Shown: positions 10,546-30,123, numbered from the stretch's first letter. The stretch is 64,000 bases of DNA from Dehalococcoidia bacterium (GCA_965226825.1 CBDDED010000003.1:2985240-3049239); one strand, 5' to 3'. The notes: generated from the sequence alone by a model not told the origin. Made by a program: numbers and translations.

Positions 10546-10624
10546 GGATTTAATGACACCTGCGGCGTGCCTGGTGTGGTACGCTTTTCGGCGGAAATGA
10601 GACGCCGCAAATCCGGAGCCAGAC

Positions 10625-11830: not shown

Positions 11831-12066
11831 CGGCCGCCCTCCAGGATATGGTCACGTCCATACCCAGGGCGGCGGCGCGGGATGAAGGCACCCGGACCAA
11901 GGATAGGCAGTAGTGGGGATGGTGGGAAAAGTCGGCGTCCGCTGCGTTTAATTCAACAGCGGCTATTGGTCTAATTTGGGGCGGGTCAAGCACCGGGGGC
12001 TCAGCGTTGGGCCATCAGAAGGCTGGGTAACCGCCCAAGTTGGTAGTCTGGCGGGAGTGCGCTCCC

Positions 12067-13347: not shown

Positions 13348-13372
13348 CGTTCGCTAACCAATGGAATTCCGG

Positions 13373-14761: not shown

Positions 14762-14923
14762 GGCGGACCTCCTCTAGGCAATGCGGAGGGTTGTTTCGGG
14801 GGTATTGAGCCCAATCTAGCAAGAGGCGTTACCATTGTCAACGGACTGACCGGTTGCTTGGGCTAGAATCGTAGCAATACAATCATGGCGCTAAACGTTT
14901 AACTCGACAGGAGCAGGACTTCG

Positions 14924-15916
14924 ATGGAATATCGGAGATTTGGACCTACAGACATAACGGTATCGGCCCTGGGGTTTGGTTGTTGGGAGATGGGAGGCAC
15001 CTACGGAGACGTTACAGAGCCGGAAGTGGCGGCTGCCGTCAACCGCGCTATAGACCTTGGCATCAACTGCTTCGACACGGCCCCGGCATACGGAAGAGGC
15101 GAGTCCGAGATTCTATTGGGCAGAGCTCTGGGACCCAGACGGAAGGACGTGGTGGTGATCACCAAGTGCGGGGTTGGCTACCCCGACCGTCCAAAGGGCA
15201 GGGATAGCCGGATGGTGTCTATCTTTGCCTCGGTCGAGCAGAGCCTGCGGAACCTGGGGACTGATTACGTGGACGCTTTGCTCATTCACTGGCCGGACGT
15301 CAGCACGCCTTTCGATGAAACCATGCATGCGCTGGACAGCCTGGTGCGCCAGGGAAAAGTCCGCGCCGTTGGGGTCTCCAATTTTAGCATCGACCAGATT
15401 GAAGAATGTGAAGCCGTGCGGAGTGTCGACGTCGTGCAGTACGGCCTCAACATGTTTGACCGGCGCATGGAGCAGGAGATATTTCCCCACTGCCAGCAGC
15501 GGGGGACAGGCGTAATGGTCTACGGCCCGCTGGCATTTGGCCTGCTGTCCGGCGCATTTACCGCGGAAACGACGTTCGGGAGCAACGATTGGCGATCCAC
15601 CGGCGGGCGTCCGGGGTGGAACGTTGGAGTGTTTGCCGAGGAGCACTTTCAGCGAAACTTACATGTCGTGGAGGAACTGAAACCCATCGCCGCCGCACGG
15701 GGAAAAAAGATGCCGCATCTTGCTTTGCGATGGGTCCTGTCAAATCCCGCGGTAAGCGTGGCATTGGTAGGCACTCGCACCGTTCAGGAAGTGGAAGACA
15801 ACGTCGCCGGGCTGGAGTGGGCCCTGTCGGGAGCGGAAATGGAGCAGATTGACGAGGTGTTCGCCCGCTACGGCGTGGACACGCACCCGGACATAGTCAT
15901 AGACCCGCCGGAATAG
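14924..15916 (+). CDS. aldo/keto reductase
   Basis: MEYRRFGPTDITVSALGFGCWEMGG..FDTAPAYGRGESE..DALLIHWPD.. Confidence 0.9.
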   Translation: MEYRRFGPTDITVSALGFGCWEMGGTYGDVTEPEVAAAVNRAIDLGINCFDTAPAYGRGESEILLGRALGPRRKDVVVITKCGVGYPDRPKGRDSRMVSIFASVEQSLRNLGTDYVDALLIHWPDVSTPFDETMHALDSLVRQGKVRAVGVSNFSIDQIEECEAVRSVDVVQYGLNMFDRRMEQEIFPHCQQRGTGVMVYGPLAFGLLSGAFTAETTFGSNDWRSTGGRPGWNVGVFAEEHFQRNLHVVEELKPIAAARGKKMPHLALRWVLSNPAVSVALVGTRTVQEVEDNVAGLEWALSGAEMEQIDEVFARYGVDTHPDIVIDPPE

Positions 15917-16872
15917 GGAACCGGCGACTTGACCGGGATATTCTCACCGATGCCACCACACAGCACTGCATCTCTCTGATAATGGTCACGCCCAGCCAAG
16001 GCGTAATGAAACGTCATTCTTCTGTCAATGTAGCCTTGATTGTACGCGGTGAGCTGAGGGAAGAGTATCCTTGCGCCCGATTGGATGGCGGAGGACGCAC
16101 ACTGTGTCGATGCGGAGTTGGATTTCCCACGTAAGGGGCCCCAAGAGTTGTTTAAATAGAAGATACTTCAATTGGTAGTACCACTGCAGTAGAAGTTCTG
16201 GTTGTCAGCGTCGGCCTTGTCCAACGGAGAGGCGATGCGGGAGAACTGATCCTGGGCTGGAGCAAGGGCTCTGGCGGCGCGACCCCTATTACAGCGCACG
16301 GAACTAGAGAAAGTGGGCAAAGGAGCACTGTATACAAAATTCGAGTTGGTGGGACTCAGTGAGCCTGCCAGGATCTGCACTCACCACTGGGATGGGACGG
16401 TAAATGTAGCGGCAACAGCAGTTGTAGTGAACAGACCTCTAACTCGCAGAGCGTGGAGACGGAACCAAGCGTATCCGGACAACCATGCTGGACTTGCAAT
16501 AGCGCAGTCTTGGAACTTACCGAGGAACAAAGGGTGGCGGGTTCCAAGCGTCGCGAGAGCTAAGAAACCTCTGAATAAGTTGTTGGATTGCCCCAGACCA
16601 CGGCTTAGCTAGGCACGATTCCAACAGAGGATCGCCGTCGTTCCCGACTTGTTCAGAGGTTTCCTAAACATGTTGGGAGAAGAGTTGCTGAGTCCGCCAG
16701 ATGTGCCGGCTGTGGCATTGACACAGCAGGTTTGCCAACCTTTACCACAGCCGCGCTACATGGTTGCAGATGTGCCATGAGGACGTTTACGCTCCCGTAG
16801 CCGCAGGCGGCGGCTGGAGGAAGGTTGGGGTAGCGGATGTTCTGGAGCGAGCGGGGGAGTGAGGTTGGGTAT

Positions 16873-17988
16873 TTATCCCTGCTCCTCGGCCGGCCCAATT
16901 TCTTCCAAGGTAAGTGTCTTGCCTTTACGTATGGCGTGTACGACAACTTCGCGATCCCAAAGAGGGCGGACTATGTCGTTCATCATTCCTGGCGGAACGA
17001 TGATCCGGCTTGACAAATTTCCGTCGATGACTTGGATAGTATTATTGTTCCCTCGCCGAGCATCAGCGAAGCGTAAAGTCCCCTTCATCTCCACCGGCTC
17101 GGCAGGGGTCGCACGCGAATCGGCGAGGTTTGGGGACGGGAGTTCCGCCGCCGGCGTCGTCAACTCTACGGAACGTTCACTTCCGCCGCGTGTTGCGGTA
17201 AATCCTACCTGACGAAATCGTTCGCCATCGGGTGCTATATTTCTTGCTAAGCCGTAGAAATTTCGCAGATATGCTTGGTCAGGGATAAGATCTTGGATTT
17301 CGTCAACGCGGGATTTGTTGACCAGTTCTATCAGGTCCATAAACTCGTCCACGATGACAGCAGAAGGAGACATCCCCGGCAAAGGAGGCTGAACAGGGCT
17401 GCCGAATTGCATCATTACAGCGAAGCTGCCGTTTCTGGGTGGGGAAAGCAGCAACCGATGATTTTCCCGTATTTCCTTGGGAGGCCCACCCCTCTCTCGA
17501 AACGGCAGACCTTGCTTCCGCTCGGCTGTGCGGTAAATCAGTTGCGCTGAGGTATTAACACGCCCATATACCGCACCTAACTCGGCGACTCCCTTGCCCA
17601 CTTCGGGGCCGGATAGGCTGAATTGGAGTTGGGAGTCCTGGAAAACGATGCCTTTTAGTGCAAGGTGTCGATGAAAGTAAATGTTCTCCAAGAGGTCCCG
17701 TAATTCTTCAGCGATCTCCGGGTCGGGGTCGCCAGCAAGGGCGGTAGCCGCTATCTGTTCGGCTTGGCGAAACCGGCGGCAGTCCAATGCAAGTGAACCG
17801 GCACTACGGTGTAGGACCGACCACAGTAGTCCATCAGAGGCATCCAGTTCGGCGATGGCGGCTAGTTCGGACTCCAATGCCTGCACAAAGTATCCCTGCG
17901 AACGATCCGCGTCGCCGCGAGCACGTTCCCGTATAGCGCGGTCAGTGAACTCCATAGCTTGGTCGTGCAAATCCCTAACGCTGCTCAT
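16873..17988 (-). CDS. hypothetical protein (371 aa), no recognisable domain
   Basis: Long intact ORF in a lower-GC island. Its start overlaps the stop of the upstream gene (ATGA at 17985-17988), suggesting an operon. Confidence 0.6.
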   Translation of the reverse strand: MSSVRDLHDQAMEFTDRAIRERARGDADRSQGYFVQALESELAAIAELDASDGLLWSVLHRSAGSLALDCRRFRQAEQIAATALAGDPDPEIAEELRDLLENIYFHRHLALKGIVFQDSQLQFSLSGPEVGKGVAELGAVYGRVNTSAQLIYRTAERKQGLPFRERGGPPKEIRENHRLLLSPPRNGSFAVMMQFGSPVQPPLPGMSPSAVIVDEFMDLIELVNKSRVDEIQDLIPDQAYLRNFYGLARNIAPDGERFRQVGFTATRGGSERSVELTTPAAELPSPNLADSRATPAEPVEMKGTLRFADARRGNNNTIQVIDGNLSSRIIVPPGMMNDIVRPLWDREVVVHAIRKGKTLTLEEIGPAEEQG

Positions 17989-18566
17989 TTCGCTCTAACC
18001 TCGGCAAGTGGCCTGCCAAACTCAACCACTACCACGTAAGCTGGCAACCCCCGGACGTCTGACCGATTCGTCTGGTTCATTTTACGTTTGACCCGTGCCC
18101 TTATCCTGGAGTCGTTGCCAAGTTGAATGCCGGATACCTCCATCCTTCCCCTGACGATCAGGCCATTGCCTTGAAGTGCCTCGCGCAATGCCATGGTTGT
18201 CGCCTGTTCAGCCTCAGATATGTTGTTCAGGTCGTTGTCGCCCAGCCAATAATCAATTCCGGTGGTCTTGCGGGAGCGGAGGATGACAGCGTATCCGATT
18301 TCTCCAATTGCTAATAGTGCTGCTATGCCGGCTGCGCCATCCTCAGCGGCTTCATCAGGGTCATTCCAAGTCCGTTTGGCTTGATCAGTGGCTGGAGGCC
18401 AAGCCAACGTATAGGTTTTTCTGAAGTCACCGCGGACTTCGAAATGAACCCCTTGCTGGTGCAGATGCGACTCCAAACATACAGCCCCCGCTTGCGCCAG
18501 ATCGTTTCCCTTTTCTCGTGTTATGCCCGGAATATCATCGGTATCCAGTTTGTTCAAGTCCAGCAT
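17985..18566 (-). CDS. hypothetical protein (193 aa) with a weak restriction-endonuclease-fold-like pattern
   Basis: Helix with acidic residues (EAAEDGAAGIAALLAIGEIGY), then ..TGIDYWLGD.., then ..GRMEVSGIQ.. in the order E..D..ExS. This is only a loose resemblance to PD-(D/E)xK. Confidence 0.55.
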   Translation of the reverse strand: MLDLNKLDTDDIPGITREKGNDLAQAGAVCLESHLHQQGVHFEVRGDFRKTYTLAWPPATDQAKRTWNDPDEAAEDGAAGIAALLAIGEIGYAVILRSRKTTGIDYWLGDNDLNNISEAEQATTMALREALQGNGLIVRGRMEVSGIQLGNDSRIRARVKRKMNQTNRSDVRGLPAYVVVVEFGRPLAEVRAK

Positions 18567-18745
18567 TTATACCTTAGAGCCGGGTCTGTTTGATCATGGG
18601 ATACGGTCATTAAGAGCTCACAATTTCCTGCCTCGGAGATAGTCGTCGGATTTTTTGACCGTCGTCTTTCTGACAACTTTCCGCGCCATGGCAGGCATTC
18701 CCACTCCCGGGGTGTATCTACGCGGAGTAGGTGGGGCATCGCTCT

Positions 18746-18934
18746 TTAAGAGGTGCTCTTTTCCCCAATGACTTTCCCTATTCGGCGCCTTTTATCTACC
18801 GATTCCTTTTCTTTGTAAATCCGCGCCAGTGCGGCCTCTAGAGACACGCCCAGCCGCCGGTTATTATCTCGAGCCATCACCAATCCCATTGCCCTTACTT
18901 CGTGTTCTTCCTTCCTGATATTCAATTGCTCCAA
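18746..18934 (-). CDS. small hypothetical protein (62 aa)
   Basis: ORF upstream of, and on the same strand as, the two-gene unit. Charged and helical in appearance. Coding status uncertain. Confidence 0.3.
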   Translation of the reverse strand: MEQLNIRKEEHEVRAMGLVMARDNNRRLGVSLEAALARIYKEKESVDKRRRIGKVIGEKSTS

Positions 18935-19037
18935 TATCCAGAACGCTGTTGCCCGTCATGCTCCTTTCATCAGTATGGCAAACATGGCGTAAACGACCAA
19001 ACCCCACAATCAAACGGAACCACGGGCGTGGCCTGGA

Positions 19038-19817
19038 TCAGAACTCTGGCTGGCGCTTTTCCTTGAATGCCTGGATGCCTTCGGATGGGTGGGGAGAGGT
19101 GGCCACGTATTGGGCGAAAGCCATGATTTCGTTGGCGACTCCCTCCCGCAGCGGAAGGTCTTGCCCCCGACGGGCGATGGACTTGATCCAACCCAGCCCC
19201 GGCCGGCTCTTGGTCCGCAGGGGCGTCAGCAGCTTTTCCAATTCCTCATCCAGGTCTTCGGCCGGGGCGGCCCGCAACACCAATCCCCATTCTGCAGCCT
19301 CACGCCCGGAAAGCCAGCGGCCGGTGGTCAGCAGGTCCATGGCGCGTTGCATGCCGATCCTGCGGGGCAGTCTTTGGGTGGACCCTCCGCCCGGCATCAA
19401 CCCAAAATTCACGTGCTGGTCGCCGATCCGGGCGTCGTCCGCCGCCAGAGCCATGTCGCAGGCCATCATCAGCTCCAGTCCGCCGGCCAGGGCGAACCCG
19501 TGGACCACGGCGATAACCGGCACCGGTAAGGATTCCAACTGGAAAAGGCAGTCGTTGAATTGCTGAAGGTATGGCGTGAGCAGGTCCGGCTGGGCAAATG
19601 CCGTCTGGAAGTAGATAAGGTCGGCCCCAGCCGAAAAGGCGCGGCCTTCGCCGCGGATAACCAGGGCCTTGATGCTCTGGTCGTCTTGGACGTTGGCGAC
19701 GGCGCCCGATAGGTCTTCCAGCAAGGCGGGACTCAACGCGTTCATTGCATCGGGGCGGTTGAGGCCGATGGTGGCCACCGCGCCTTCTTTCTCCAACTTG
19801 ATGTTGGTATACTCCAC
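19038..19817 (-). CDS. enoyl-CoA hydratase/isomerase (crotonase family)
   Basis: MEYTNIKLEKEGAVATIGLNRPDAMNAL..RAFSAGADL.. Confidence 0.9.
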   Translation of the reverse strand: MEYTNIKLEKEGAVATIGLNRPDAMNALSPALLEDLSGAVANVQDDQSIKALVIRGEGRAFSAGADLIYFQTAFAQPDLLTPYLQQFNDCLFQLESLPVPVIAVVHGFALAGGLELMMACDMALAADDARIGDQHVNFGLMPGGGSTQRLPRRIGMQRAMDLLTTGRWLSGREAAEWGLVLRAAPAEDLDEELEKLLTPLRTKSRPGLGWIKSIARRGQDLPLREGVANEIMAFAQYVATSPHPSEGIQAFKEKRQPEF

Positions 19818-19884
19818 GGGTTCCTCCTGAGTGTTGAAAATGAAATCGGCTTAATATATCAGACGCCGTCAACGCTAATATGTC

Positions 19885-20111
19885 GTGACCCAACCTCAAA
19901 GCCAATCCACGCAGTTTTCTACTCTACGGATCAGGGTGCAACCCAAGGCCTCCAGGTCCAGGGTCGTGGGCTTCCAGGAGTTGGGTTTCCAGGCAACGGG
20001 TTCGAGCGAAGACGTGCTGCACCTTCGGGTCACCGCTCCGCCTGAGGAAGGGAAAGCCAACGCCGCAGTGGTCGCTTTGGTGGCGAAATCCCTGCGAGTG
20101 CCTCCCAGCAG
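19885..20111 (+). pseudogene. DUF167/YggU-family gene, 5' part (split by integrated element)
   Basis: ..LRIRVQPKASRSRVVG...LHLRVTAPPEEGKANAAVVALVAKSLRVPPS is the conserved YggU core. The reading frame leaves the family pattern right after 20111. Confidence 0.8.
20100..20111. repeat. attL-like core, GCCTCCCAGCAG
   Basis: An identical 12-mer occurs at 31605-31616, in the same reading-frame phase of the split gene. Confidence 0.75.
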
Positions 20112-20114
20112 GCG

Positions 20115-20393
20115 TTGTCAATAGAAAGAACTTATCAGTTTTTCATTAAGCTGGAGCGCCCAACCAAGGGACGCAAACCTGCAAACCCATCAATTACCAA
20201 CAAGGCCTACCACAACGACTACACCATCCAGGACCGAAAACGGCGTAGCGAACTTGGCAGATGCAGGAGTTGCCCCGAACCAGCCGTACCCGGACAGACT
20301 CGCTGCACCACTTGCGCAGAGAGGCACAACGAGTTAAGTCGTGCCTACCGAAAACGCCTCAAAGAACGAGAATCAGGGCAGGAAATTTCCTGA
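20115..20393 (+). CDS. small CxxC...CxxC (zinc-ribbon-like) protein, 92 aa
   Basis: ..GRCRSCPEPAVPGQTRCTTCAERHNELSRAYRKRL... It is the first ORF inside attL. The TTG start is uncertain. Confidence 0.4.
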   Translation: MSIERTYQFFIKLERPTKGRKPANPSITNKAYHNDYTIQDRKRRSELGRCRSCPEPAVPGQTRCTTCAERHNELSRAYRKRLKERESGQEIS

Positions 20394-20616
20394 TCAGATA
20401 CAACCCCAAATACCCCCAACATCAACTGCCCAAAGCTTCATGCGGTGATAATATACTCCCCGTATCTACCAATACGTCTACATCCTACCCCAGTACCCAA
20501 CGTTCAGCAGACATCCGAAGACACCAAATCGGGGAGACAATAACTGCGGGCACGTCCGAAATCTCCGACGACCACGCACTGACCAGCATGGAATTTAATT
20601 ACCAAAGGGATTAAAC

Positions 20617-21018
20617 ATGCCTCGAAAATCACCCGCGGGAATATCTACCAACGACCTGATCTTCAGTTCCTATATCGGAACGAACGACCAAGTCTTTCCT
20701 CACGTTCTCTCCCTTTATGTTGAACCAGGAAGCACCGTCGCAGACGTCACCTTCGGCAAAGGAGTATTTTGGAAAAAAGTACCAGTGGGAGTGTTCGACC
20801 TACGCCCTACGGACATCACCACCGGGACAGACTGCAAGAATTTACCATATGCCGACGGAGAGATTGATTGCGTTGTCTTTGATCCGCCATACATGCACAC
20901 CCCCGGAGGGACAGCTCATGTCGACCATCAAAACTACGACGGCGCCGGTGTCAACCATCATCCTCGCCAAATCCAGAGCCAACAGAAACTCGATCCAGGT
21001 CCCCCGGACCGCCAGTAA
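20617..21018 (+). pseudogene. N4/N6 DNA methyltransferase gene, truncated after the DPPY motif
   Basis: ..VADVTFGKGVFW.. (FxGxG-like) and ..DCVVFDPPYMH.. (DPPY). Protein-like sequence is lost about 20 codons later, so the 133-aa length is too short. Confidence 0.6.
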
Positions 21019-21109
21019 TCAGTTCACATAGCTTCGCTAAAGAAAATTCCTAATCCGAGCCATATGGAAACCTTAACGGATCAAGAGCCCCGCGATACAA
21101 TCTCCCACC

Positions 21110-21352
21110 GGAGCAGAACTGCTCTTTGAAATCTTCAACCAGCGCTAAGAGCGGGGCTCCATCCTGGTCACCACCAACCTGCCTTTCGATGAGTGGACCC
21201 AGGTGTTCGGATCGGAACGCCTGACCGGAGCGCTGCTGGACCGTCTCACCCACCATGTCCACATCCTGGAGATGAACGGCGACAGCTACCGCCTCCGGCG
21301 CAGCCGGGAGGACGCCGCCTCGCAAGCTCCGGACAAGCCGGAAGGCGCATAA
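21110..21352 (+). pseudogene. IS21 IstB helper-ATPase gene, C-terminal fragment with internal stop
   Basis: ..[61 protein letters not shown].. is the conserved IstB C-terminus. No N-terminal part and no istA are present. Confidence 0.8.
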
Positions 21353-21480
21353 CACACCGTCAAAACTGCTCCCTCCTACCCTGTAACGTCGCCACCTTGA
21401 CCAATTTTCTGCTGAACGTCAACAGGCCAGTGGTACACGGTTACTCCGCCACAGTGGTATGTTTTGTCGACGCCCTTGAC

Positions 21481-23134
21481 ATCCGGGCTCGAATTCGGGT
21501 AGATGAGGGGTTGGCGGCGGTCTGCAGGCGTTTTTGGGGGCGCCGATGGCGGCCTACAGTGGCTGCGGTGAGCGAGATGGCGGTGAGAGGGCACGGCAAG
21601 AGGCGCTCGCGGACCGGACTGGCGCGAGTTTGCGGGGAGGTTCAGTTTGCGGGGACGTTGGGACACTGGCGGACGGGCGCCGTCAGGCCGGGAGTGGAAT
21701 GGCTCGCAACCTGGCCAGGGCGCGACTGAACTGGGTTTCCCAGGGCCAACCCTTGGGAAGATGCAGGGTGAGGCGGCGTGCCGAGCGGGTGAGCCGTCCG
21801 GCCAGGGCGAAGACCCGCCGCCTGAGGGTCTTGGTGGTCACGATCTGCTCACCCAGGCCGATGCGGGCCGTCCAGCGGGCCAGGTTATGCGCCATCACCT
21901 GAACCGCCAGCCAGGCGCCGTTGGCGGCGAAGCACCCCGACGGCATGTGGTTCAGCCCGACGCCGTACTTGAGGTCGCGTATGGCGTTCTCGACCTCGGC
22001 GTGGCGGCGATGATCGGCCTCCAGTTCCAGCATCTCCCCGTCCCGGTCGGTGATGAAGCCGTGATAGCTGTATCTGGCGAAGAGGGCGAGCTGGGAACCG
22101 GGCGTCGGCTTCACCCGCCGGACAATGAGCCGCACCGGTGCGGCGTCCGGCTTGGTCTGGAACGGGGTGTAAGTAGTCTCGGCGACATCGGCGGCGCCGT
22201 CCATCCAGTAGGGAATGGGAGTCCAGTCCTGCTCTGGTATCGCCTCGATCAGGTCCCGCAGGCTTTTGTGCTGGCGGACGGTGATGGAGAAGCGGACATC
22301 CATTTCCCGGCAGGCGGAAACGACAGTGTGGGCGTAGAAGCCGCTGTCGGCCCGCGCCGTGAGTTGTCCGCTGGCTCCGCCGTAGCGCACCCGCCCCACC
22401 GTTTCACGCAGGAAGTGGGCGGCGCCGCGGGCGGTGTTGGCGCGGCCCTCGCGCAGCCGGGACATCAACACGTCGCCGGTGCCGGCGGCGATAGCCAGCA
22501 GTGGGTGATAGCCACGGGCGCCGGTATAGCCGTGGTGGCGTGCCCCCTCCTTGGCCATGCCGTAGGTTTCGCAGATGGTCGAATCCAGGTCGATGGTCAA
22601 AGGCGCATCGCCGGGTCCGGCCCCGGCCTGCCATGCCCGTGCCAGCAACTGGCGGCTCACGCGGTCGAGTTGACGGACGTGGCCCCAGCGAAAGCTGCGC
22701 AGGAAGGTCCCGAGGGTGGATGGCGCCTTGACCACGCAGCCGAGAACACCGACCGTCCCACCGGCACGCAGCGCATCGGCGTCGTCGATGCAGTCGCCGC
22801 CGGCCAGCGCGGAAGCGACCAGCGTCAGTAGCTTGTCCCCCGTGTTGGCCCGCCCCGGCGCGCCGCCGAGGTCGAGGTGACGGTCGACGAGTTCCCGCAG
22901 GCCCAGGCGCCGGGCGAGGGTGGCAGGAAGAAGCAGGCCGGCATTGGCCACCAGGCGGTGGTCGTCGAAGGTGATTTGGATCCGGTCGGGGTGGTTGCGT
23001 GGTAGCATCTAATGGGTGATCCTTTTCTGGGACTGTTTTTCTGTTCCAAAACCATTATCCCAGATTCAGAAGAGCACCTTTTTGCCCTTTCAGGAGGCCT
23101 CTCACACGCCCTTGTTCGGTGGATTGGGGCTTAT
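21481..23134 (-). mobile_element. IS1380-family IS, copy 1 (one terminus missing)
   Basis: Homology with copy 2 starts abruptly at 21481 (= 28470 of copy 2). The ~80 bp carrying the transposase-distal terminal IR are therefore absent. The other end, ..CGGTGGATTGGGGCTTA, is at 23117-23133. Confidence 0.75.
21683..23008 (-). CDS. IS1380-family DDE transposase (441 aa)
   Basis: MLPRNHPDRIQITFDDHRLVANAGLLLPATLARRLGL..GDCIDDADALR.. is characteristic of IS1380-type transposases. Intact ORF. Confidence 0.85.
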   Translation of the reverse strand: MLPRNHPDRIQITFDDHRLVANAGLLLPATLARRLGLRELVDRHLDLGGAPGRANTGDKLLTLVASALAGGDCIDDADALRAGGTVGVLGCVVKAPSTLGTFLRSFRWGHVRQLDRVSRQLLARAWQAGAGPGDAPLTIDLDSTICETYGMAKEGARHHGYTGARGYHPLLAIAAGTGDVLMSRLREGRANTARGAAHFLRETVGRVRYGGASGQLTARADSGFYAHTVVSACREMDVRFSITVRQHKSLRDLIEAIPEQDWTPIPYWMDGAADVAETTYTPFQTKPDAAPVRLIVRRVKPTPGSQLALFARYSYHGFITDRDGEMLELEADHRRHAEVENAIRDLKYGVGLNHMPSGCFAANGAWLAVQVMAHNLARWTARIGLGEQIVTTKTLRRRVFALAGRLTRSARRLTLHLPKGWPWETQFSRALARLRAIPLPA

Positions 23135-23294
23135 GAACCTGGTGCGCCAATTCCGCCGCCTAAAGGTAATCGCGTTACATCTGGGCGGATTCTACATGCT
23201 GGAGGTGGCGGAGCGGGAGTTGATTGGTCTGTAGGCGTCCCAGCGCGGTCTCGCGCCAAGAGGGCGTTTGAGGGGTTTATCCTCCCCCTCCGGC

Positions 23295-24365
23295 TTATCT
23301 GGTCAAGACCTGGGCCAAGCTCTCCAGGAAGCCGCCGATGTGGTCCTGTGTGATCAACCCAACGGTGCCCAGGCGGAAGGTAGTCTCGCTCAATGGACCC
23401 TGAGACTTGTAAATCAAGTACCCGCGCTCTTTCAAAGGCCGATGCAGGTCATTGTAGGAGAACCCGTCGGGCAGCATTACCGAGGTCATGGTGTTGGACA
23501 GGTTCTCTCGGGACACCAGGAAACTCAACTCCAGGGCTGCCAGTCCGTCGCGCAGCGAATGGGCGATGTCGCGGTAGTGGGCTATGCGGCGGTCCACGCC
23601 CTCCTCCAGCAATTCCCTGGCAGCCTCCCGGAGAGCATAAATGGTCTGGATGGGCGGCGTGAAGGGGGTCTCTCCTTCCTCTTCCCGGATCAAGGCGCCG
23701 ACCAGGTCGGTGGAAAAAGTCACCTGGCGCCGTTGGGCCACCACTTCCAGCAGCTCATTGGAGACCACCACGAAGGAGGCCCCGGGAATGCCGCGAAGGC
23801 ACTTGTTGGCCGACCCGATAATCAGGTCGACACCCCAACTGGGCAGGTCCAACTCCTCGCCGGCCACGCTGCTAACGGTATCCACCAGCACCCACTTTTG
23901 ACGGCCTTTGGCTATCTCGGCAACCTGGGCCAGGTCATTGAGGACACCCGTGGTGGTCTCGTGGTGGATCAGATACACCACATCGTGGGAGGTGGCGCCA
24001 ACCAACTCCTCCACTCGTTCCAGGGGCAGGGGAAGTGTCCAGTCGAAATTCTCCAGGGTGAAGGGAATCCCGAAGACCTGCGCGATCTGGGCGGCCCGCT
24101 CACCATAGACTCCATTGGACAGGACCAAGACGCCACTGGTAACGCCGGCCAGGGAGGTAATAGCGGCTTCGATGCCTGTGGTGCCGGAGCCGCTTAGCAC
24201 GGCGCAGGCGTATCCTTTGGGCACGCCACATACCTGAAGTAGCAGAGAGCGGGTTTCCAGCAGAAGCTCGGAGAACTCGGACTCACGGTGGCCAATGTCG
24301 GGCAGGGTGAGAGCCAGGCGAACGCGCTCGGAGATGTTGGCCGGGCCGGGCGAAAATATTATCAT
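23295..24365 (-). CDS. class-V aminotransferase, 2-aminoethylphosphonate:pyruvate transaminase-like
   Basis: MIIFSPGPANISERV.. N-terminus, 356 aa. It is the last gene of the pepM-ppd operon, so the function is assigned from context. Confidence 0.7.
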   Translation of the reverse strand: MIIFSPGPANISERVRLALTLPDIGHRESEFSELLLETRSLLLQVCGVPKGYACAVLSGSGTTGIEAAITSLAGVTSGVLVLSNGVYGERAAQIAQVFGIPFTLENFDWTLPLPLERVEELVGATSHDVVYLIHHETTTGVLNDLAQVAEIAKGRQKWVLVDTVSSVAGEELDLPSWGVDLIIGSANKCLRGIPGASFVVVSNELLEVVAQRRQVTFSTDLVGALIREEEGETPFTPPIQTIYALREAARELLEEGVDRRIAHYRDIAHSLRDGLAALELSFLVSRENLSNTMTSVMLPDGFSYNDLHRPLKERGYLIYKSQGPLSETTFRLGTVGLITQDHIGGFLESLAQVLTR

Positions 24366-24370
24366 CCCGT

Positions 24371-24943
24371 TCAGTCCTTCCGGTGGACGTTGCTCCGGAA
24401 CCGGTCCCTGATCTCGGTTGGCGGGTGGGACACCCGGGGAATACCCTCCACCGGGGCAATACCGGCCTTGACCAGAATCAGGTGGGGGCCCGGTACACCG
24501 GCCACCCCCAAAAGAGCGTCTTCCAAGTCTTCTATATCATCCACTCGCGCCACCTGCCGGTAGCCGCAGCTCTTGGCTACCTCGGCCAAGTCCACTTTGG
24601 AGCTAATGGTTGGCTGCCCTCCGGTGGACTCGTAGGATTCGTTGTCCAGGATAAAATGGACGAGGTTGCTGGGATTTTCGCCGGCGATGAGGGGCAAAGC
24701 ACCCAGGCTCATCAATGCGCTGCCATCTCCCTCCAGCACAAAAACCCGCTGCTCCGGCACCATCAGGGCCAGACCCAGACCGAAGGATGACAGGAGCCCC
24801 ATGGAGCCGATCATGTAGAAATTCCCGGGCCTGTCTTCGGTGAAGAATACCTCACGCGATATCATCCCCGTGGTGCTCAACACCAGGTCGGCGGGCCGGA
24901 CATGCGCCAGGATTTTCTCTATGGCCCTGTAGCGGCCGATCAA
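24371..24943 (-). CDS. phosphonopyruvate decarboxylase, beta (TPP-binding) subunit
   Basis: ..VFVLEGDGSALMSLGALPL..FILDNESYESTGGQ.. (GDG..N thiamine-diphosphate motif). A 4-nt overlap with the alpha subunit gene. Confidence 0.75.
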   Translation of the reverse strand: MIGRYRAIEKILAHVRPADLVLSTTGMISREVFFTEDRPGNFYMIGSMGLLSSFGLGLALMVPEQRVFVLEGDGSALMSLGALPLIAGENPSNLVHFILDNESYESTGGQPTISSKVDLAEVAKSCGYRQVARVDDIEDLEDALLGVAGVPGPHLILVKAGIAPVEGIPRVSHPPTEIRDRFRSNVHRKD

Positions 24944-25434
24944 TCCACCACTCCAGGCCTGATCAGCAGCGCTCCTGGTACCGATCGCCTGTGGATTTCC
25001 GCCAACAGCCGGTCCAAGGCGTACTCCAGTTGGTCCGGCTCCGGTACTTCGTAGGGGACTTCCAGAAGGTCAAAAATCTCCGGCGACTTCACACCCATGA
25101 TCCAATGCTCGGGAGCGTCGTTGGGTGGACCGCCATAACCTCGCCAGCCGACTACCAGCAGCACCGGAATCTTGTACATCAGGCTAAACGAGGTCAGGGG
25201 ATTTACGATGTTGCCGATTCCCGAGTTCTGCATCATGACGCCGCCCAGTTTCCCGGCGAAATAGGCGGCGCTGGCCACGCCCAGAGCCACGTCTTCCCGC
25301 ACCGCTGGCACGTAGCGCACCTCCGGGTCTTCCACCATATAGTTGTAGGATTGTTGAAACGTAGAGTCGGGCACACCGGAGAAGAAAGTCAAACCTCGCG
25401 CCTTCAGCACGTCCCAGAAAGCTCCTGCTTCCAT
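24940..25434 (-). CDS. phosphonopyruvate decarboxylase, alpha subunit
   Basis: N-terminal TPP-enzyme pyrimidine-binding-type sequence ..FFSGVPDSTF..MQNSGIGN... Located next to pepM. Confidence 0.7.
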   Translation of the reverse strand: MEAGAFWDVLKARGLTFFSGVPDSTFQQSYNYMVEDPEVRYVPAVREDVALGVASAAYFAGKLGGVMMQNSGIGNIVNPLTSFSLMYKIPVLLVVGWRGYGGPPNDAPEHWIMGVKSPEIFDLLEVPYEVPEPDQLEYALDRLLAEIHRRSVPGALLIRPGVVD

Positions 25435-25452
25435 GATCTAATAGCCGACCAA

Positions 25453-26472
25453 TTAGCCCGGTACGGCCTCTACCGCCGGTATCCCGGCGCCAGGGCCTGC
25501 TCCGTTTCTTCGGTTCTCCACCAGACGCATGTCCTCGGCCCGCTCCCGGTCTTTGCGGTTGATGCGGTCTAAGCCCACCGTGGCAAATATCTCGCCTACC
25601 GGCGCGCACAACGGGTCCACCTCCAGGCTGCGCCCGCTCTCCAGGATGGTCCGGGCCGCCTGGTTCATGGCTTTATAGGCGGCCCGGAGCAGATGGTTCG
25701 CGTGGATGATGATGTTGAAACCACACGCGACCAGCTCCGCGTCGCTGACGGTATTGTATGTGGTTGGCACGCTTACTAGGACCGGCCGGCGGCCCATGCG
25801 GCCGCACAGTGCCTCGTAGGCCTCCGCGAAGGCCAGAATGTCGTCGGGCCGCCGGTCGCTGGAGTGTACCATGAGGCCATCGGCCCCAGCCTGAATGTAC
25901 TGCTCTGCCCTTTCCAGGGCGTCCTCTAAACCTGCGCCGGCGATGAGGCTCTCCAGCCGGGCGATGACCATGAAATCATCGCTGATAACCATCTCTCTAC
26001 CCGCCCTAATCTTCTGGGCAAAGACCAACGGGTCCTCCAGGTCCTGGCTGGCGGACCCGTCGAGGCTGTTTCTCTTGGGAAACACCTTGTCTTCGATTAT
26101 CACGGCCGAAACACCCAACCGCTCCAGGTTCTTGACCATGTATTCGAACTGGGAGGCTTCACCGCCGGTGTCGCCGTCCACGATAATGGGCTTGGTAGTA
26201 ACATTGAGTATTTCGTCGATGGTGCGGGCGCGGGAGTCGTTGCCGACGATGGAGGCGTCGGGCAATCCCTTAGTGGCCGAGTCGGTGAGGCTGCTTTCCC
26301 ATATCCCGTCGTATTCGACAACCTGGCCGTTCATCTGGACCCGGGCATTTTCCACCACCAACCCGCTCAGGCCGCTGTGGGCTTCCAGGATACGGGCAAA
26401 TCCCTTCCGGGAGATGCACTCCCGCAAACCGCTGAGCCGTTCCCAGGGCCCGATTCTGTTTTCAATACTCAT
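25453..26472 (-). CDS. pepM: phosphoenolpyruvate mutase
   Basis: Isocitrate-lyase/PEP-mutase fold sequence carrying the PepM-diagnostic EDKxxxxxNS motif as IIEDKVFPKRNS. Confidence 0.85.
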   Translation of the reverse strand: MSIENRIGPWERLSGLRECISRKGFARILEAHSGLSGLVVENARVQMNGQVVEYDGIWESSLTDSATKGLPDASIVGNDSRARTIDEILNVTTKPIIVDGDTGGEASQFEYMVKNLERLGVSAVIIEDKVFPKRNSLDGSASQDLEDPLVFAQKIRAGREMVISDDFMVIARLESLIAGAGLEDALERAEQYIQAGADGLMVHSSDRRPDDILAFAEAYEALCGRMGRRPVLVSVPTTYNTVSDAELVACGFNIIIHANHLLRAAYKAMNQAARTILESGRSLEVDPLCAPVGEIFATVGLDRINRKDRERAEDMRLVENRRNGAGPGAGIPAVEAVPG

Positions 26473-26547
26473 ACGAACCTCCTCCTTTGTCCACTAGAGC
26501 CAGACTTAATAGGGGCGCCGCGCCGAATGGCTATGGAGTGTAGACAG

Positions 26548-27576
26548 TCAGGGCTCGGAAGGCTTCTCCGCTGTAACGAGCGCCAGTTGGGTAGGCAGGG
26601 CAATGGTTCTGGTATTTTGGAAACCCGAAGCCTCGAGCCACGAGGCTACCTCTTTGCCTTCCCGGTCGCCGGCACCGGGGTCGAAGGCAACCAGCACGTA
26701 CATGTCCTCGAAGGTGTCCAGCCTCTTTCGCTCGGCGCTCTCGTCAATGCGCATGTAGTCCTGGATGATTACCATGCCGCCGGGCAGCAAAAGGTCATAG
26801 GCCAGCCGGAACAGCTGGCGGCAGTCCTCTCCGGACTTGATCAGGACCACACCAGAGATGAGCACCACATCGTAGTCCGCACCCGCCTCCGCCTTGAAGA
26901 AGTCGCCTTCAAGCAGAGAAATCTGGCTTTGCAGGTTATGCTCTTCCACAAGGGTCTTGGCGATGATGAGGGGCTCTTTTTGGTCTAGCACGACGGCTTT
27001 GAGCTGAGGGTTGGCGGCGCATAAGGCGATACTGTAGCTGGCCGCTCCACCGCCCAGGTCCAGAAGCTTGCGCCGGTCCCGCAGGTCCACATTTTCCACC
27101 AAATGGTAGGCCTGCCCAGAGACGGCGCGGTTGTGCTGGCCCATCATGTAGTTGGTCCAGTAGGTGGGCGGGTCAACGAATCCGGTCTCGTAAGGCAACA
27201 GGGTCTTACCTTCGAGGATTATCTCGTCAAGTCGGCCCCAGGAGGCCCAAGTGTTGGTGTGGTGAAGGGCGTGGTCGCCCACATAGGCTTTCTTGGTTTT
27301 GACTAGGAATGATGAGGAAAGGGGAGAATTGCCGTATTTGTCCCCCTTGGTCTCCAGCAGGTCAAGGGCTACACACGAATCGAGAAACGCCTGGACATAT
27401 CGTGGAGAGGCGCCCAGGTTTTGGGCCACTTGGCCGTGGGTTAACTCCTGGTCCTCCAGCAGTGAAAATACGTCGAGCTTGATGGCAGCCCGCAGTATGG
27501 CCGAGTACCAGAAATTACGCGCCAACTCGTTGACGCGCTCCGCCTCCATGTGCGCGGGAGGGCTGGACCGGTCCAT
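26548..27576 (-). CDS. SAM-dependent O-methyltransferase (dimerisation domain + class I MTase)
   Basis: ..LLDLGGGAASYS.. glycine-rich SAM motif after a ~100-aa winged-helix-like N-terminal part. First gene of the phosphonate operon. Confidence 0.7.
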   Translation of the reverse strand: MDRSSPPAHMEAERVNELARNFWYSAILRAAIKLDVFSLLEDQELTHGQVAQNLGASPRYVQAFLDSCVALDLLETKGDKYGNSPLSSSFLVKTKKAYVGDHALHHTNTWASWGRLDEIILEGKTLLPYETGFVDPPTYWTNYMMGQHNRAVSGQAYHLVENVDLRDRRKLLDLGGGAASYSIALCAANPQLKAVVLDQKEPLIIAKTLVEEHNLQSQISLLEGDFFKAEAGADYDVVLISGVVLIKSGEDCRQLFRLAYDLLLPGGMVIIQDYMRIDESAERKRLDTFEDMYVLVAFDPGAGDREGKEVASWLEASGFQNTRTIALPTQLALVTAEKPSEP

Positions 27577-28096
27577 GCAGTTTCCTCCTCTGTGCTTTGG
27601 CGCCCGCTATCGTCGCTTTTGATGTTCCAGGCCGGTTACGTCCAGCCCCATAATAAAAATTAAATGCCAATAGACATTCGCAGGGAGTTTAGGGGCAATA
27701 CACCAGCTGATCCCGCCCCCAAGGGGACGGGAGTTAAAGGTATTTTTCAGGGAAGGGAAATTGAAACGGCGGCGCTAGGGGTCGAAAGGAAGGGCATGCT
27801 GGTATCTGGATTGCAAGTTGCTGCGGCGCGACCACCTGATGGGTGCCTTGCCGGTGCGACTACTCAGGCGGTTGATAGTCCCAGAATCGAGAGGGACTAC
27901 AACCGGTACGCTCGCACCTTTTATGCTACTTAGGACGGTCACATCTACATCCAGTCCCTTGGCGTACCCTACCACCCCCTAGAGAAAGGGGAGGTTTCTG
28001 ATGCTCGATGAGTGTAGCGGCGAGTGTAACAACGTTGACCCGCTTCGTCAACTTGTGCCCAACAGAAGCGAACCGCCATCACCGGTGCCTCCGTCA

Positions 28097-28387
28097 TCAG
28101 GGCTGATGAGCCGCCCCACCCTTGCGGGCGAACAACAGGCAATGCTCTACGGACTTGCTGTCGGTTAAATGTAGGAGAGCCGCCAGGTCGTCGGGTGAGT
28201 CGGGCCTGATTAGGGTTACTTTCTGCTGCCCTAGTATGCCCAGAATATCGTTCTCTTCGTAAAGCTGAAAGTTCCGCTCCATTCCGTAGTCCTGGTCGAA
28301 CACGGTGAGGATGCCACGCCCGTTCTTGAACATGAGCTGCAGGACGCCTTGGGGGCATAGTACCCGGGCCAGCTCGGGCAACACCAC
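28097..28387 (-). pseudogene. class I SAM methyltransferase gene, C-terminal fragment cut by IS1380 copy 2
   Basis: ..LPELARVLCPQGVLQLMF.. is the typical post-motif region. The ORF is open up to the IS terminus at 28390 and lacks SAM-binding motifs. Confidence 0.55.
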
Positions 28388-28389
28388 CT

Positions 28390-30123
28390 CTTAGCCCGAA
28401 TCCACCGGTGGACACTGATAGACGGCGTGAGGACAGCGGAAGGGTGGTGAGGGAGTTACAGACGCGATGATCCGGGCTCGAATTCGGGTAGATGAGGGAT
28501 TGGCGGCGGTCTGCAGGCGTTTTTGGGGGCGCCGATGGCGGCCTACAGAGGCTGTGGTGAGCGAGATGGCGGGATAGGACACGGCAAGAGGCGCTCGCGG
28601 GGACCGAGATGGCGCGAGTTGGCGGGGACGTTCAATTGGCCGGATGGCGGGTCAGTGGCAGACGGGCACCATCAGGCTCGGAGTGGAATCGCTCGCAGTC
28701 GGGTCAAGGCGCGACTGACCTTCTCCTCCCATGGCCAACCCTTGGGAAGATGCAGGGTGAGGCGGCGTGCCGAGCGGGTGAGCCGTCCGGCCAGGGCGAA
28801 GACCCGCCGCCTGAGGGTCTTGGTGGTCACGATCTGCTCACCCAGGCCGATGCGGGCCGTCCAGCGGGCCAGGTTATGCGCCATCACCTGAACCGCCAGC
28901 CAGGCGCCGTTGGCGGCGAAGCACCCCGACGGCATGTGGTTCAGCCCGACGCCGTACTTGAGGTCGCGTATGGCGTTCTCGACCTCGGCGTGGCGGCGAT
29001 GATCGGCCTCCAGTTCCAGCATCTCCCCGTCCCGGTCGGTGATGAAGCCGTGATAGCTGTATCTGGCGAAGAGGGCGAGCTGGGAACCGGGCGTCGGCTT
29101 CACCCGCCGGACAATGAGCCGCACCGGTGCGGCGTCCGGCTTGGTCTGGAACGGGGTGTAAGTAGTCTCGGCGACATCGGCGGCGCCGTCCATCCAGTAG
29201 GGAATGGGAGTCCAGTCCTGCTCTGGTATCGCCTCGATCAGGTCCCGCAGGCTTTTGTGCTGGCGGACGGTGATGGAGAAGCGGACATCCATTTCCCGGC
29301 AGGCGGAAACAACAGTGTGGGCGTAGAAGCCGCTGTCGGCCCGCGCCGTGAGTTGTCCGCTGGCTCCGCCGTAGCGCACCCGCCCCACCGTTTCACGCAG
29401 GAAGTGGGCGGCGCCGCGGGCGGTGTTGGCGCGGCCCTCGCGCAGCCGGGACATCAACACGTCGCCGGTGCCGGCGGCGATAGCCAGCAGTGGGTGATAG
29501 CCACGGGCGCCGGTATAGCCGTGGTGGCGTGCCCCCTCCTTGGCCATGCCGTAGGTTTCGCAGATGGTCGAATCCAGGTCGATGGTCAAAGGCGCATCGC
29601 CGGGTCCGGCCCCGGCCTGCCATGCCCGTGCCAGCAACTGGCGGCTCACGCGGTCGAGTTGACGGACGTGGCCCCAGCGAAAGCTGCGCAGGAAGGTCCC
29701 GAGGGTGGATGGCGCCTTGACCACGCAGCCGAGAACACCGACCGTCCCACCGGCACGCAGCGCATCCGCGTCGTCGATGCAGTCGCCGCCCGCCAGCGCG
29801 GAAGCGACCAGTGTCAGTAGCTTGTCCCCCGTGTTGGCCCGCCCCGGCGCGCCGCCGAGGTCGAGGTGACGGTCGACGAGTTCCCGCAGGCCCAGGCGCC
29901 GGGCGAGGGTGGCAGGAAGAAGCAGGCCGGCATTGGCCACCAGGCGGTGGTCATCAAAGACAATGCGGATCCGGTCGGGATTGTTCTGTGGCAGCATCTA
30001 TAGGGTGCTCCTTGTTTCCAGACGGTTTTCTGTTCCAAAACCATTATCCCAGATTCAGAAGAGCACCCTCCGGATTCTTCAAGGTCTGTCCCCAGGGCCG
30101 TCCTTCGGTGGATTCGGGCTAAG
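28390..30123 (-). mobile_element. IS1380-family IS, copy 2 (complete, 1734 bp)
   Basis: Perfect 18-bp terminal inverted repeats: CTTAGCCCGAATCCACCG (28390-28407) and its reverse complement at 30106-30123. No flanking direct repeat is visible. Confidence 0.85.
28672..29997 (-). CDS. IS1380-family DDE transposase (441 aa)
   Basis: Identical to the copy-1 protein except for about 4 N-terminal and about 5 C-terminal residues. Confidence 0.85.
   Translation of the reverse strand: MLPQNNPDRIRIVFDDHRLVANAGLLLPATLARRLGLRELVDRHLDLGGAPGRANTGDKLLTLVASALAGGDCIDDADALRAGGTVGVLGCVVKAPSTLGTFLRSFRWGHVRQLDRVSRQLLARAWQAGAGPGDAPLTIDLDSTICETYGMAKEGARHHGYTGARGYHPLLAIAAGTGDVLMSRLREGRANTARGAAHFLRETVGRVRYGGASGQLTARADSGFYAHTVVSACREMDVRFSITVRQHKSLRDLIEAIPEQDWTPIPYWMDGAADVAETTYTPFQTKPDAAPVRLIVRRVKPTPGSQLALFARYSYHGFITDRDGEMLELEADHRRHAEVENAIRDLKYGVGLNHMPSGCFAANGAWLAVQVMAHNLARWTARIGLGEQIVTTKTLRRRVFALAGRLTRSARRLTLHLPKGWPWEEKVSRALTRLRAIPLRA

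Follow-up and report, generated by a model that had tools for sequence, protein, structure and literature searches.

A phosphonate gene cassette between two IS1380-family copies within a Dehalococcoidia integrative element

Results

The phosphonate genes and their upstream region

Five minus-strand genes lie between two IS1380-family insertion sequences (IS) in the 64-kb stretch of Dehalococcoidia DNA analyzed here (the window). Their HMM matches identify a methyltransferase, a PEP phosphomutase (PepM), a split phosphonopyruvate decarboxylase (Ppd) and a transaminase of the 2-aminoethylphosphonate (AEP) type; a leader and the relic of a further gene lie upstream of them.

23295-24365, minus strand: class-V aminotransferase, AEP-transaminase type (PF00266)
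24371-24943, minus strand: Ppd beta half (TPP_enzyme_C, GDG...N; TIGR03297 positions 171-358, 195.5 bits)
24940-25434, minus strand: Ppd alpha half (TPP_enzyme_N; TIGR03297 positions 1-155, 129.6 bits)
25453-26472, minus strand: PepM (TIGR02320, 333.1 bits, cut-off 319.55)
26548-27576, minus strand: SAM methyltransferase of the Methyltransf_2 family with dimerisation domain (profile match)
27577-28051, minus strand: leader (about 440 nt) and promoter-like motif (promoter scan)
28097-28389, minus strand: relic of a class-I methyltransferase, last ~96 codons (intact 234-aa gene in L004, L011 and L012)

An earlier note on this DNA had read these genes as the route from PEP through phosphonopyruvate and phosphonoacetaldehyde to an AEP-type product, and both the HMM matches and the residues of PepM bear this out. 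The PepM ORF carries EDKVFPKRNS, a sequence of the required EDKxxxxxNS form, and in an alignment to the references 1M1B and 5UNC it is identical to the Mytilus enzyme at D58, D85, D87, E114, K120, N122, S123, R159 and H190; all of the mutase residues on which that reading had been made to depend are thus present. Each Ppd half by itself scores below the cut-off of the full-length TIGR03297 model, and both sulfopyruvate decarboxylase models score lower than TIGR03297 and also under their own cut-offs. The top model for the aminotransferase is TIGR03301 (PhnW-AepZ) with 313.8 bits, which is under its equivalog cut-off of 360.8. The nearest solved structure to the Methyltransf_2 protein is DsyB (7WDW; E = 2.8e-31, aligned over the full length), and because DsyB is an S-methyltransferase, the O-methyltransferase label is not established. 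Purifying selection acts on all five genes (omega 0.07-0.30; 0.07 for the aminotransferase against L002), and in GC content and GC3 the cassette does not depart from the genome average. A search of the 64-kb window for nucleotidyltransferase, LicD-family and cytidylyltransferase-like genes found none. Probably, these five genes continue to produce 2-AEP or a methylated derivative of it.

Within the 520-bp gap that precedes the cassette genes, the motif TTGACG-17-TACACT (28051-28023) is invariant in seven loci, which include relatives at 71% amino-acid identity, and the DNA surrounding it has diverged. The five genes are probably transcribed from this putative promoter of the cluster's own, which lies ~450 nt ahead of the DsyB-like methyltransferase; given a conserved native promoter-like motif, the promoter that the earlier note had sought in the IS becomes unnecessary. 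The idea that the leader forms a riboswitch or another structured RNA was rejected (no Rfam match; a weak consensus fold of -17.7 kcal/mol over 483 columns). The class-I methyltransferase relic is decaying, unlike the five other genes (omega ~1.4 against L003). Its truncation point is common to the window and L003, where an IS5-like element adjoins instead, and, to judge by the TAA that lies in frame within the flanking 5-mer, the truncation is older than the insertion of the neighboring IS (copy 2, below). The CTAA that both loci have at this point may be either an IS1380 scar or native sequence.

The six-gene cluster and the relatives of the cassette

Dehalococcoidia possess a six-gene cluster that consists of a class-I methyltransferase, a gap of ~550 bp, a DsyB-like methyltransferase, PepM, PpdA, PpdB and the aminotransferase. 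It occurs with an intact first methyltransferase in L004, L011 and L012, and in part in L010, and elsewhere the ancestral cluster is found in ordinary chromosomal contexts. In L011, a more distant relative, LicD-family and cytidylyltransferase-like genes lie directly upstream of it. The window cassette is a cut-down relic of this conserved cluster; what had been described as a phosphonate operon "plus a methyltransferase" does contain the methyltransferase but is really the truncated six-gene cluster.

The cassette recurs at 95-98% nucleotide identity in other Dehalococcoidia genomes (L002, L003, L006-8), and the dS of its genes is 0.03-0.07 across genomes classed as different species. No flank common to the window and L002-L008 was found at either the DNA or the protein level; the cassette's neighbors in these bacteria are IS1380, IS5-like and IS21 elements and unrelated contexts. 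In L002, IS1380 elements again stand on both sides, at positions and in an orientation unlike those of the window, and the outer 5-mers, CTAAG and GTTAG, do not match each other. The upstream IS is inverted in L002 and of another kind in L003, and the cassette genes are conserved nonetheless. A metagenome scan with PepM returned only four loci, short or distant.

The two IS1380-family copies

Members of the IS1380 family have short terminal inverted repeats that begin with CC and make target duplications of 4-5 bp. The window holds two IS1380-family transposase genes, in direct orientation and 6,989 bp apart, which bracket the operon as previously described.

21482-23129, minus strand: copy 1, truncated, with intact transposase ORF 21683-23008
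23130-23134: target-type 5-mer beside the copy 1 IRL, CTTAT (ATAAG on the operon strand), native cassette DNA
28390-28394: target-type 5-mer CTTAG beside the copy 2 IRR, outside the IS (CTAAT there in L003)
28395-30118, minus strand: copy 2, complete, 1,724 bp, with transposase ORF 28672-29997
30119-30123: 5-mer CTAAG beside the copy 2 IRL, from the recombinase gene (intact allele CCAAG)

Both transposases (441 aa each) match NF033539, with 329.4 and 328.7 bits (cut-off 180), and also PF13701; exact look-ups of the two sequences gave no match. In reference copies of a 91%-identical IS the tips of the element are CCCGAATCCACCG...CGGTGGATTCGGG, and the IS proper ends at CCCG. Perfect 5-bp target-site duplications (TSDs) flank five of eight complete reference copies (TTTAG, CTTAG, TTTAG, TTTAC and CTAAT; YTWAR-like sites); the other three are without a matching one. 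Copy 2 is complete, as had been stated, but the bounds formerly given for it, 28390-30123, are too wide, and the 24-nt inverted repeat formerly described takes in, at either end of the IS, 5 nt of target that are nearly palindromic (CTTAG / CTAAG); the repeats proper are 19 nt long, with 17 of 19 positions matching. Copy 1 is without ~75-80 bp, including its IRR, and the right terminus of an IS21 remnant adjoins it at 21481/21482, replacing the outer end whose absence had already been remarked.

Comparison of the flanking 5-mers revealed no TSD at either window copy, in agreement with the previous description; the strong target preference of this IS makes matches at four of five positions uninformative. 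Copy 2 is flanked by two different truncated genes with non-identical 5-mers. Across the insertion point of copy 1, L003 has continuous native sequence (...CAGGTTCATAAG/GCGCGG), inside one arm of a 24-nt hairpin. The two copies have a mosaic structure: over nt 200-1300 they agree at 99.7%, but at the IRL end at only 71-82%, and recombination or conversion between IS copies has therefore been active here. This IS is also extremely abundant: about 8,000 homologues score E <= 1e-50, and individual contigs carry several. Strain L027 carries an extra IS1380 inside the methyltransferase relic; the flanks of this insertion are contiguous and show a TTTAC/CTTAC duplication, though the contig (L027/L030) is covered 4x and could be chimeric at an IS.

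The integrative element

The cassette and its IS copies lie within a larger insertion of ~11.5 kb.

20100-20111: 12-bp direct repeat GCCTCCCAGCAG, left copy, attL-like, bounding the insertion
20112-21109, plus strand: remnant of the element's left arm, with ORF 20115-20393 (92 aa, Cys-rich) and truncated ORF 20617-21018 (DPPY)
21110-21481, plus strand: IS21 remnant, an IstB C-terminal fragment with an in-frame stop; right terminus ...CCCTTGACA
30121-31652, plus strand: large serine recombinase pseudogene (Resolvase, Recombinase and Zn_ribbon_recom domains)
31605-31616: 12-bp direct repeat, right copy, attR-like, within the last codons of the recombinase ORF

The 12-mer occurs in the window at positions 20100 and 31605 only, and in the related strain L030 (on the same low-coverage contig) a single 12-mer joins both outer flanks, which is the empty site. 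The recombinase has lost its first ~63 codons, including the catalytic-serine motif YARTSS, and its frame is further interrupted by a stop codon at 30553 and shifts before 30606. The gene is nonfunctional, and its domains, the end repeats and the empty site are those of a large-serine-recombinase integrative element, the setting that had been claimed for the operon. An intact homologue (P0121) has 566 aa and 82% identity. At the equivalent chromosomal site, L031 has an intact recombinase whose homology to the window ends exactly at the IS tip and which reads CCAAG where the window has CTAAG. The block thus interrupts a gene that is intact in a relative, which upholds the general idea that the cassette was relocated by IS elements. 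In the related element whose recombinase is intact, the 3.4 kb upstream contain no cassette. A six-frame search of the window for the motif YxRxS[ST]xxQ of the recombinase 5' part found none.

Pfam searches of the left-arm ORFs gave no match; the truncated ORF 20617-21018 is a candidate DNA methylase by its DPPY motif. The IstB fragment matches PF01695 at profile positions 184-237 of 238. In L027 the IS21 terminus meets copy 1 elsewhere, at window 22331, and this indicates an adjacent deletion. We also considered an attP inside the recombinase gene, with the ORF continuing into 20115-20393 upon excision, and rejected it, as the homologues cover the recombinase part alone. The closest recombinase homologue stops a few codons past the core. 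No tRNA gene was found as an integration target in the window or in the loci.

Reproducibility of the junctions

Repeated IS copies invite mis-assembly, a danger raised in the earlier note, and collapse or polishing across repeats might explain why a 1.1-kb core is nearly identical in both copies. However, all the junctions recur in assemblies made independently from several samples, and a colinear long-read contig is among them. The junction between the copy 2 IRR and the cassette is spanned at 100% in L023, that between the copy 2 IRL and the recombinase in L024-L026, and that between the copy 1 IRL and the cassette in L001; L028 is colinear with the window from 29813 to 9040 at 99.8%. An assembly artefact is accordingly very improbable.

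Discussion

We consider it probable that the locus is a nest of mobile elements in which a now-crippled composite transposon carried the cassette into the recombinase gene of an integrative element. The integrative element (20112-31604), with its serine recombinase gene at the right end, would have entered the 12-bp site. A block made of copy 2, the 5.26-kb cassette and copy 1 would then have entered the recombinase at codon ~63, at the IS1380 target CTAAG, the likeliest route being composite transposition with the copy 2 IRL and the copy 1 IRR as its ends; the recombinase would have been killed by this event. Later an IS21 would have struck the outer end of copy 1, and linked deletions would have taken the copy 1 IRR, the 5' part of the recombinase and adjacent DNA of the element. 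Since those deletions removed the IRR of copy 1, the composite is now immobile as a unit. That transposition and not IS-IS recombination was the mover, and that the events had this order, seems to us most likely. Two copies of the same IS do surround the cargo, but both outer ends are not intact, and with regard to a composite target duplication, the far flank has been deleted in the window and the IS-cassette-IS block of L002 has non-matching outer 5-mers. The earlier truncation of the methyltransferase is a step that the composite model leaves without explanation.

The position of the missing recombinase segment bears on how the block moved. As the 5' part is absent to the right of 21482, the far end of the mobilised unit lay past copy 1, and since any mobilised unit extended past copy 1, that copy's own IRR is its natural second end. 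This argues against the ISEcp1-type mechanism that had been proposed, in which one-ended transposition would have run from copy 2 to a surrogate IRR' beyond the cassette, with the outward promoter driving the genes. The cassette does lie downstream of the copy 2 IRR in the direction of the transposase, and the element does belong to the IS1380 family. Nonetheless, among all the plus-strand CTAAG sites and IRR-like sites (at least 9/13) between 15000 and 28390, no surrogate rises above chance: no IRR-like sequence follows any of the four CTAAG sites, no IRR-like site has a CTAAG duplication, and the candidate suggested near 23144-23158 (at 23146, matching 9/13) is one of 26 such sites, where shuffled sequences give 20.7 +/- 4.5. 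Homology with L003 runs past this site to the insertion point of copy 1. Moreover, ~700 bp with the gene relic and the conserved native promoter-like motif separate the copy 2 IRR from the first intact cassette gene, and the inverted or different upstream IS of L002 and L003 has left the genes conserved. We therefore regard one-ended transposition as improbable.

Homologous recombination between IS copies is the more serious competitor of composite transposition, although we hold it to be rather unlikely: a solo IS1380 would have inserted into the recombinase and then recombined either with a cassette-adjacent copy or with a circle of IS and cassette. The mosaic copies point to conversion or recombination, the abundance of the IS offers ample substrate, and three of the eight reference copies likewise have no matching TSD; in addition, the downstream copy of L027 has the copy-2 isoform of the IRL end at the identical insertion site. 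Such a history requires at least two steps versus one for composite transposition, and no donor locus or circle junction was seen among the loci. The cassette would be IS cargo in either case, the mechanism alone being different. A resident operon, the original cargo of the element, with IS copies inserted on either side and the cassette never relocated, would suit both the very frequent insertion of this IS and the average base composition of the cassette. It is nevertheless hard to credit. Copy 2 connects the methyltransferase relic with the truncated recombinase, and no TSD is seen there; upstream of the intact recombinase in the related element there is no cassette; the ancestral cluster has ordinary chromosomal contexts elsewhere; and nothing that flanks the cassette in the other genomes carrying it recurs beside it in the window.

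A large part of the dissolved organic phosphorus in the sea is phosphonate. The distribution of pepM is known to be patchy, and the gene to be exchanged horizontally; to our knowledge, the vehicles of this exchange have seldom been resolved. The locus offers a nucleotide-level example, with its IS1380 pair, target rule, putatively self-promoted cassette, recombinase insertion, att repeat and empty site. We suggest only tentatively that the IS1380 composite is a vehicle, active now or until recently, that takes a minimal self-promoted AEP module from one Dehalococcoidia species to another and into integrative elements. If this were true, phosphonate production would be a transposable trait in an abundant Dehalococcoidia lineage, and the near-identity of the cassette between species would reflect such traffic. 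The two methyltransferases of the six-gene cluster hint at N-methylated AEP products, and the locus also suggests that the mobile version has lost part of the ancestral pathway. The kinds of mobile DNA found here were already known, and our understanding of how the IS or the PepM pathway works is unchanged.

Comparison with known systems

Composite transposons (Tn10, Tn5 and Tn9, for example) rely on two IS copies to mobilise the DNA between them. Like these, the window has a self-contained, putatively self-promoted operon between two IS copies with full transposases, and its block interrupts a gene at the canonical target of its IS. Unlike intact composites, it has copies that are direct and mosaic, one outer end destroyed by IS21 and no remaining mobility, and its cargo is a phosphonate pathway instead of a resistance gene; with the far flank deleted, no flanking duplication is visible. 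The ISEcp1-blaCTX-M units, also of the IS1380 family, move by one-ended transposition and provide an outward promoter. The window shares with them the family, the 5-bp duplications and a cargo downstream of the IRR in the transposase direction; unlike them, it lacks a surrogate IRR' that bears a matching duplication, its natural far end being a second IS copy, and the conserved promoter-like motif of its cargo is several hundred bp from the IS.

The phosphonyl tailoring (Pnt) and Lic-type surface decoration clusters use nucleotidyl activation and have a PepM-Ppd-aminotransferase core (Rice et al. 2019, PMC6697681). The window has the same core, and the L011 relative adds LicD-family and cytidylyltransferase-like genes; in the window cassette, by contrast, no such gene is present and the first methyltransferase is truncated. 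In Prochlorococcus and SAR11, pepM cassettes are part of the flexible genome; they occupy genomic islands and bear signs of horizontal transfer, and one genome has its cassette near a transposase (Acker et al. 2022, PMC8931226). The host here is instead a member of the Dehalococcoidia and the cassette is without a nucleotidyltransferase, and, unlike in those cases, the vehicle is resolved to the nucleotide, in its IS ends, its target rule, its att repeat and its empty site.

The Cassette Genes and the Six-Gene Cluster

The minus-strand gene row between the two IS1380-family copies, which an earlier note had read as a phosphonate (AEP-type) operon, was borne out by the ORF list and HMM scans. 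Its five intact genes, and the relic upstream of them, are as follows:

28389-28097, minus: class-I methyltransferase relic, the final ~96 codons left in the window
27576-26548, minus: Methyltransf_2 protein with dimerisation domain (ORF list and HMM scan)
26472-25453, minus: PepM (TIGR02320, 333.1 bits, exceeding the cut-off of 319.55)
25434-24940, minus: Ppd alpha (TIGR03297 positions 1-155)
24943-24371, minus: Ppd beta (TIGR03297 positions 171-358)
24365-23295, minus: class-V aminotransferase (top match TIGR03301 PhnW-AepZ, 313.8 bits, under the 360.8 cut-off)

Alignment against the Mytilus and Streptomyces PepM structures revealed that every catalytic residue and the EDKxxxxxNS motif are kept, and in the HMM scan both Ppd subunits score higher with TIGR03297 than with the sulfopyruvate decarboxylase models. 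Purifying selection acts on all five intact genes (omega 0.07-0.30 versus the homologous locus L002 and 0.06-0.12 versus L004); the relic evolves neutrally (omega about 1.4 versus L003). A second class-V aminotransferase lies 22 kb off (46391-47713, minus) and shares 28% identity with the cassette enzyme.

The relatives of the cassette come from Dehalococcoidia and Chloroflexota MAGs. At four more distant loci, L004, L010, L011 and L012 (PepM 71-88% identical), a six-gene cluster is conserved, in which a 234-aa class-I methyltransferase is followed by a gap of ~550 bp and then by the window's five genes. This first methyltransferase, lost from the window, has in L004 (6692-7396) a weak likeness to phosphoethanolamine N-methyltransferases; the nearest solved structure to the retained “O-methyltransferase” (26548-27576, minus) is DsyB (E = 2.8e-31, full length), the S-methyltransferase of DMSP synthesis, whose substrate is a small acid. 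Given these two likenesses, N-methylated AEP products would be a reasonable guess. Immediately 5' of the L011 cluster are LicD-family and cytidylyltransferase-like genes (1065-2465), which suggests that the native product would decorate a surface polymer; surface decoration through nucleotidyl activation follows the same logic (PMC6697681). The 64-kb window contains no LicD or cytidylyltransferase homologues.

Between the relic and the gene that follows it lies a TTGACG-17-TACACT motif (28051-28023, minus) that is invariant in 7 of 7 aligned loci, including relatives down to 71% amino-acid identity, amid strongly diverged adjacent DNA. Because of this invariance the cassette likely brings its own promoter, and the outward IS promoter that had been proposed would be unnecessary. 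The leader that follows (27577-28022, minus; about 440 nt) is conserved in length (410-455 nt across loci); it gave no Rfam match, and consensus folding revealed no convincing conserved fold.

The IS1380 Copies

The IS1380 transposase model recognizes two 441-aa ORFs (about 329 bits, cut-off 180), in agreement with the claimed bracketing by two direct copies separated by 6,989 bp. Homologues of the transposase number about 8,000 at E <= 1e-50; many of them are >88% identical, and a single contig can have several; the element is hugely expanded, with clusters that reach 8,726 member sequences. The IS ends were read from ten genomic copies (L013-L022) of a 91%-identical relative, eight of which are complete. 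This reference element measures 1,707 bp, with termini CCCGAATCCACCG...CGGTGGATTCGGG, and perfect 5-bp target duplications flank five of its complete copies (TTTAG, CTTAG, TTTAG, TTTAC and CTAAT); the other three have no matching duplication. The termini and duplications together identify the 5 nt outside CCCG as target sequence, with a YTWAR-like preference. On this basis, the two copies are delimited as follows:

28395-30118: IS1380 copy 2 proper, 19-nt inverted repeats (17/19 match)
21482-23129: IS1380 copy 1, with native ATAAG at the IRL and the IRR end missing

The 5-mers flanking copy 2, CTTAG and CTAAG, are not a target duplication; their likeness stems only from the near-palindromic nature of the preferred target. 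In place of its IRR end, copy 1 runs into an IS21 remnant at that remnant's right terminus; the IstB fragment of the remnant corresponds to PF01695 positions 184-237. No further copies of the IR core occur elsewhere in the window.

The earlier worry that these repeated copies had been misassembled was not sustained, as each junction is reproduced by independent contigs: that of the copy 2 IRR with the cassette by L023 (100%), that of the copy 2 IRL with the recombinase by L024 (99.9%) and L025/L026, and that of the copy 1 IRL with the cassette by L001 (99.6%). The long-read contig L028 runs colinear (99.8%) with window 29813..9040.

The Decayed Integrative Element

Copy 2 is followed on its right by a large serine recombinase gene, present only from the equivalent of residue ~64 of P0121 onward; P0121 is an intact 566-aa homologue with 82% identity. 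Besides its missing start, the window gene has an internal stop and a frameshift. In L031 the recombinase is intact at the same chromosomal site, with phosphatase, JAB, exchanger and dehydrogenase neighbors shared with the window. The homology between the two loci starts exactly at the IS tip, where L031 has CCAAG and the window the flanking CTAAG. A 12-bp direct repeat, GCCTCCCAGCAG, occurs in the window only at 20100-20111 and 31605-31616, its right copy falling within the recombinase ORF's final codons; in a related strain a single copy (L030 4359-4370) joins both outer flanks, as an empty site. Positions 20112-31604 are thus an insertion of ~11.5 kb. The segment is a decayed integrative element whose right end carries the recombinase, and the IS/cassette block sits within that recombinase gene.

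Beside the element is a strain-variable segment (L027 10794-13879 versus window 15922-19024), which encodes an nSTAND3 NTPase (682 aa) in L027 and, in the window, where its G+C is lower (0.52-0.55), three ORFs without a Pfam match. At several intergenic sites a dispersed repeat with core GGCTCTGGATTCCCGCTGCGGCGAGAATGACGG, also present in L024, L030 and L031, forms tandem arrays (periods 49-102 bp, <=5.6 copies):

32928-33136, 39066-39202, 54409-54971: repeat arrays
near 7221-7256, 10128-10319, 59630-59814: shorter copies

The Cassette in Other Genomes

The cassette was found in several other genomes at 95-98% nucleotide identity. L002 has an IS1380 on either side of it, the upstream one inverted at a TTTAC site within the relic and the downstream one 30 bp from the window's insertion site. 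The L003 cassette has no IS1380. Instead, an IS5-like element (6742-8088; DUF772 and DDE_Tnp_1, 21-nt IRs, CTAA duplication) adjoins the methyltransferase truncation at the very CTAA that copy 2 occupies in the window; downstream, the native sequence is unbroken and the copy 1 insertion point falls within one arm of a 24-nt hairpin. The truncation point is common to the window and L003; an in-frame TAA in the adjoining 5-mer indicates that the truncation is older than the insertion of copy 2 there. Near the IS5-like element are a tyrosine integrase and a tRNA T-arm-like sequence not called by ARAGORN.

One Dehalococcoidia genome (CBDCQN01) has three copies (L006, L007 and L008), all cut at PepM residue 104 and with ~260-300 bp upstream of the cut in common; two are 100% identical across 2.6 kb, and their downstream ends differ, each within the aminotransferase gene. 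Immediately upstream of the L007 copy is an IS21 element (IstA/IstB). No flanks are shared between the window and L002, L003 or L006-L008, at either the DNA or the protein level.

In another strain of the window's species (L027/L030) a third IS1380 has inserted into the relic, whose sequence is contiguous on either side of it (TTTAC/CTTAC), and the point where the IS21 terminus meets copy 1 is displaced inward by some 850 bp. On L030 contig ctg450927 (4x coverage) a 1.37-kb enoyl-CoA hydratase segment (window 18746-20111) occurs twice, at 4359-5724 and 16600-17171, and the copy 2 IRL meets window position 18746 (target CTTAA) rather than the recombinase. Either an IS has genuinely rearranged the DNA here, or the contig is a chimera joined through an IS.

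Origin of the Block

The anatomy is best fitted by a one-step composite transposition that would have carried the block into the recombinase gene; an IS21 strike and deletions would have come afterwards. Such a history would place a junction of recombinase codons 1-63, CTAAG and CCCGAATCCACCGGTGGAC beside the copy 1 IRR; this far end is gone, and for that reason composite transposition is not provable. Recombination between IS copies is clearly active at the locus: copies 1 and 2 are 99.7% identical at nt 200-1300 and just 71-82% in the first 200 nt, at the IRL end, with 78-94% near the IRR end. Such mosaicism suggests gene conversion between neighbors or, possibly, polishing across repeats. 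The earlier note had pointed to an ISEcp1-type one-ended capture of the cassette by the IS. This is disfavored, since there is no IRR' with a matching duplication, the IRR-like site at 23146 is a chance-level match, and any mobilized unit must have reached past copy 1.

Operons bounded by IS are a classic type of mobile unit. In marine bacteria, pepM cassettes that lie in genomic islands and bear marks of horizontal transfer have already been documented (PMC8931226). The locus is a well-resolved new example from the Dehalococcoidia of a mechanism that is not itself new.
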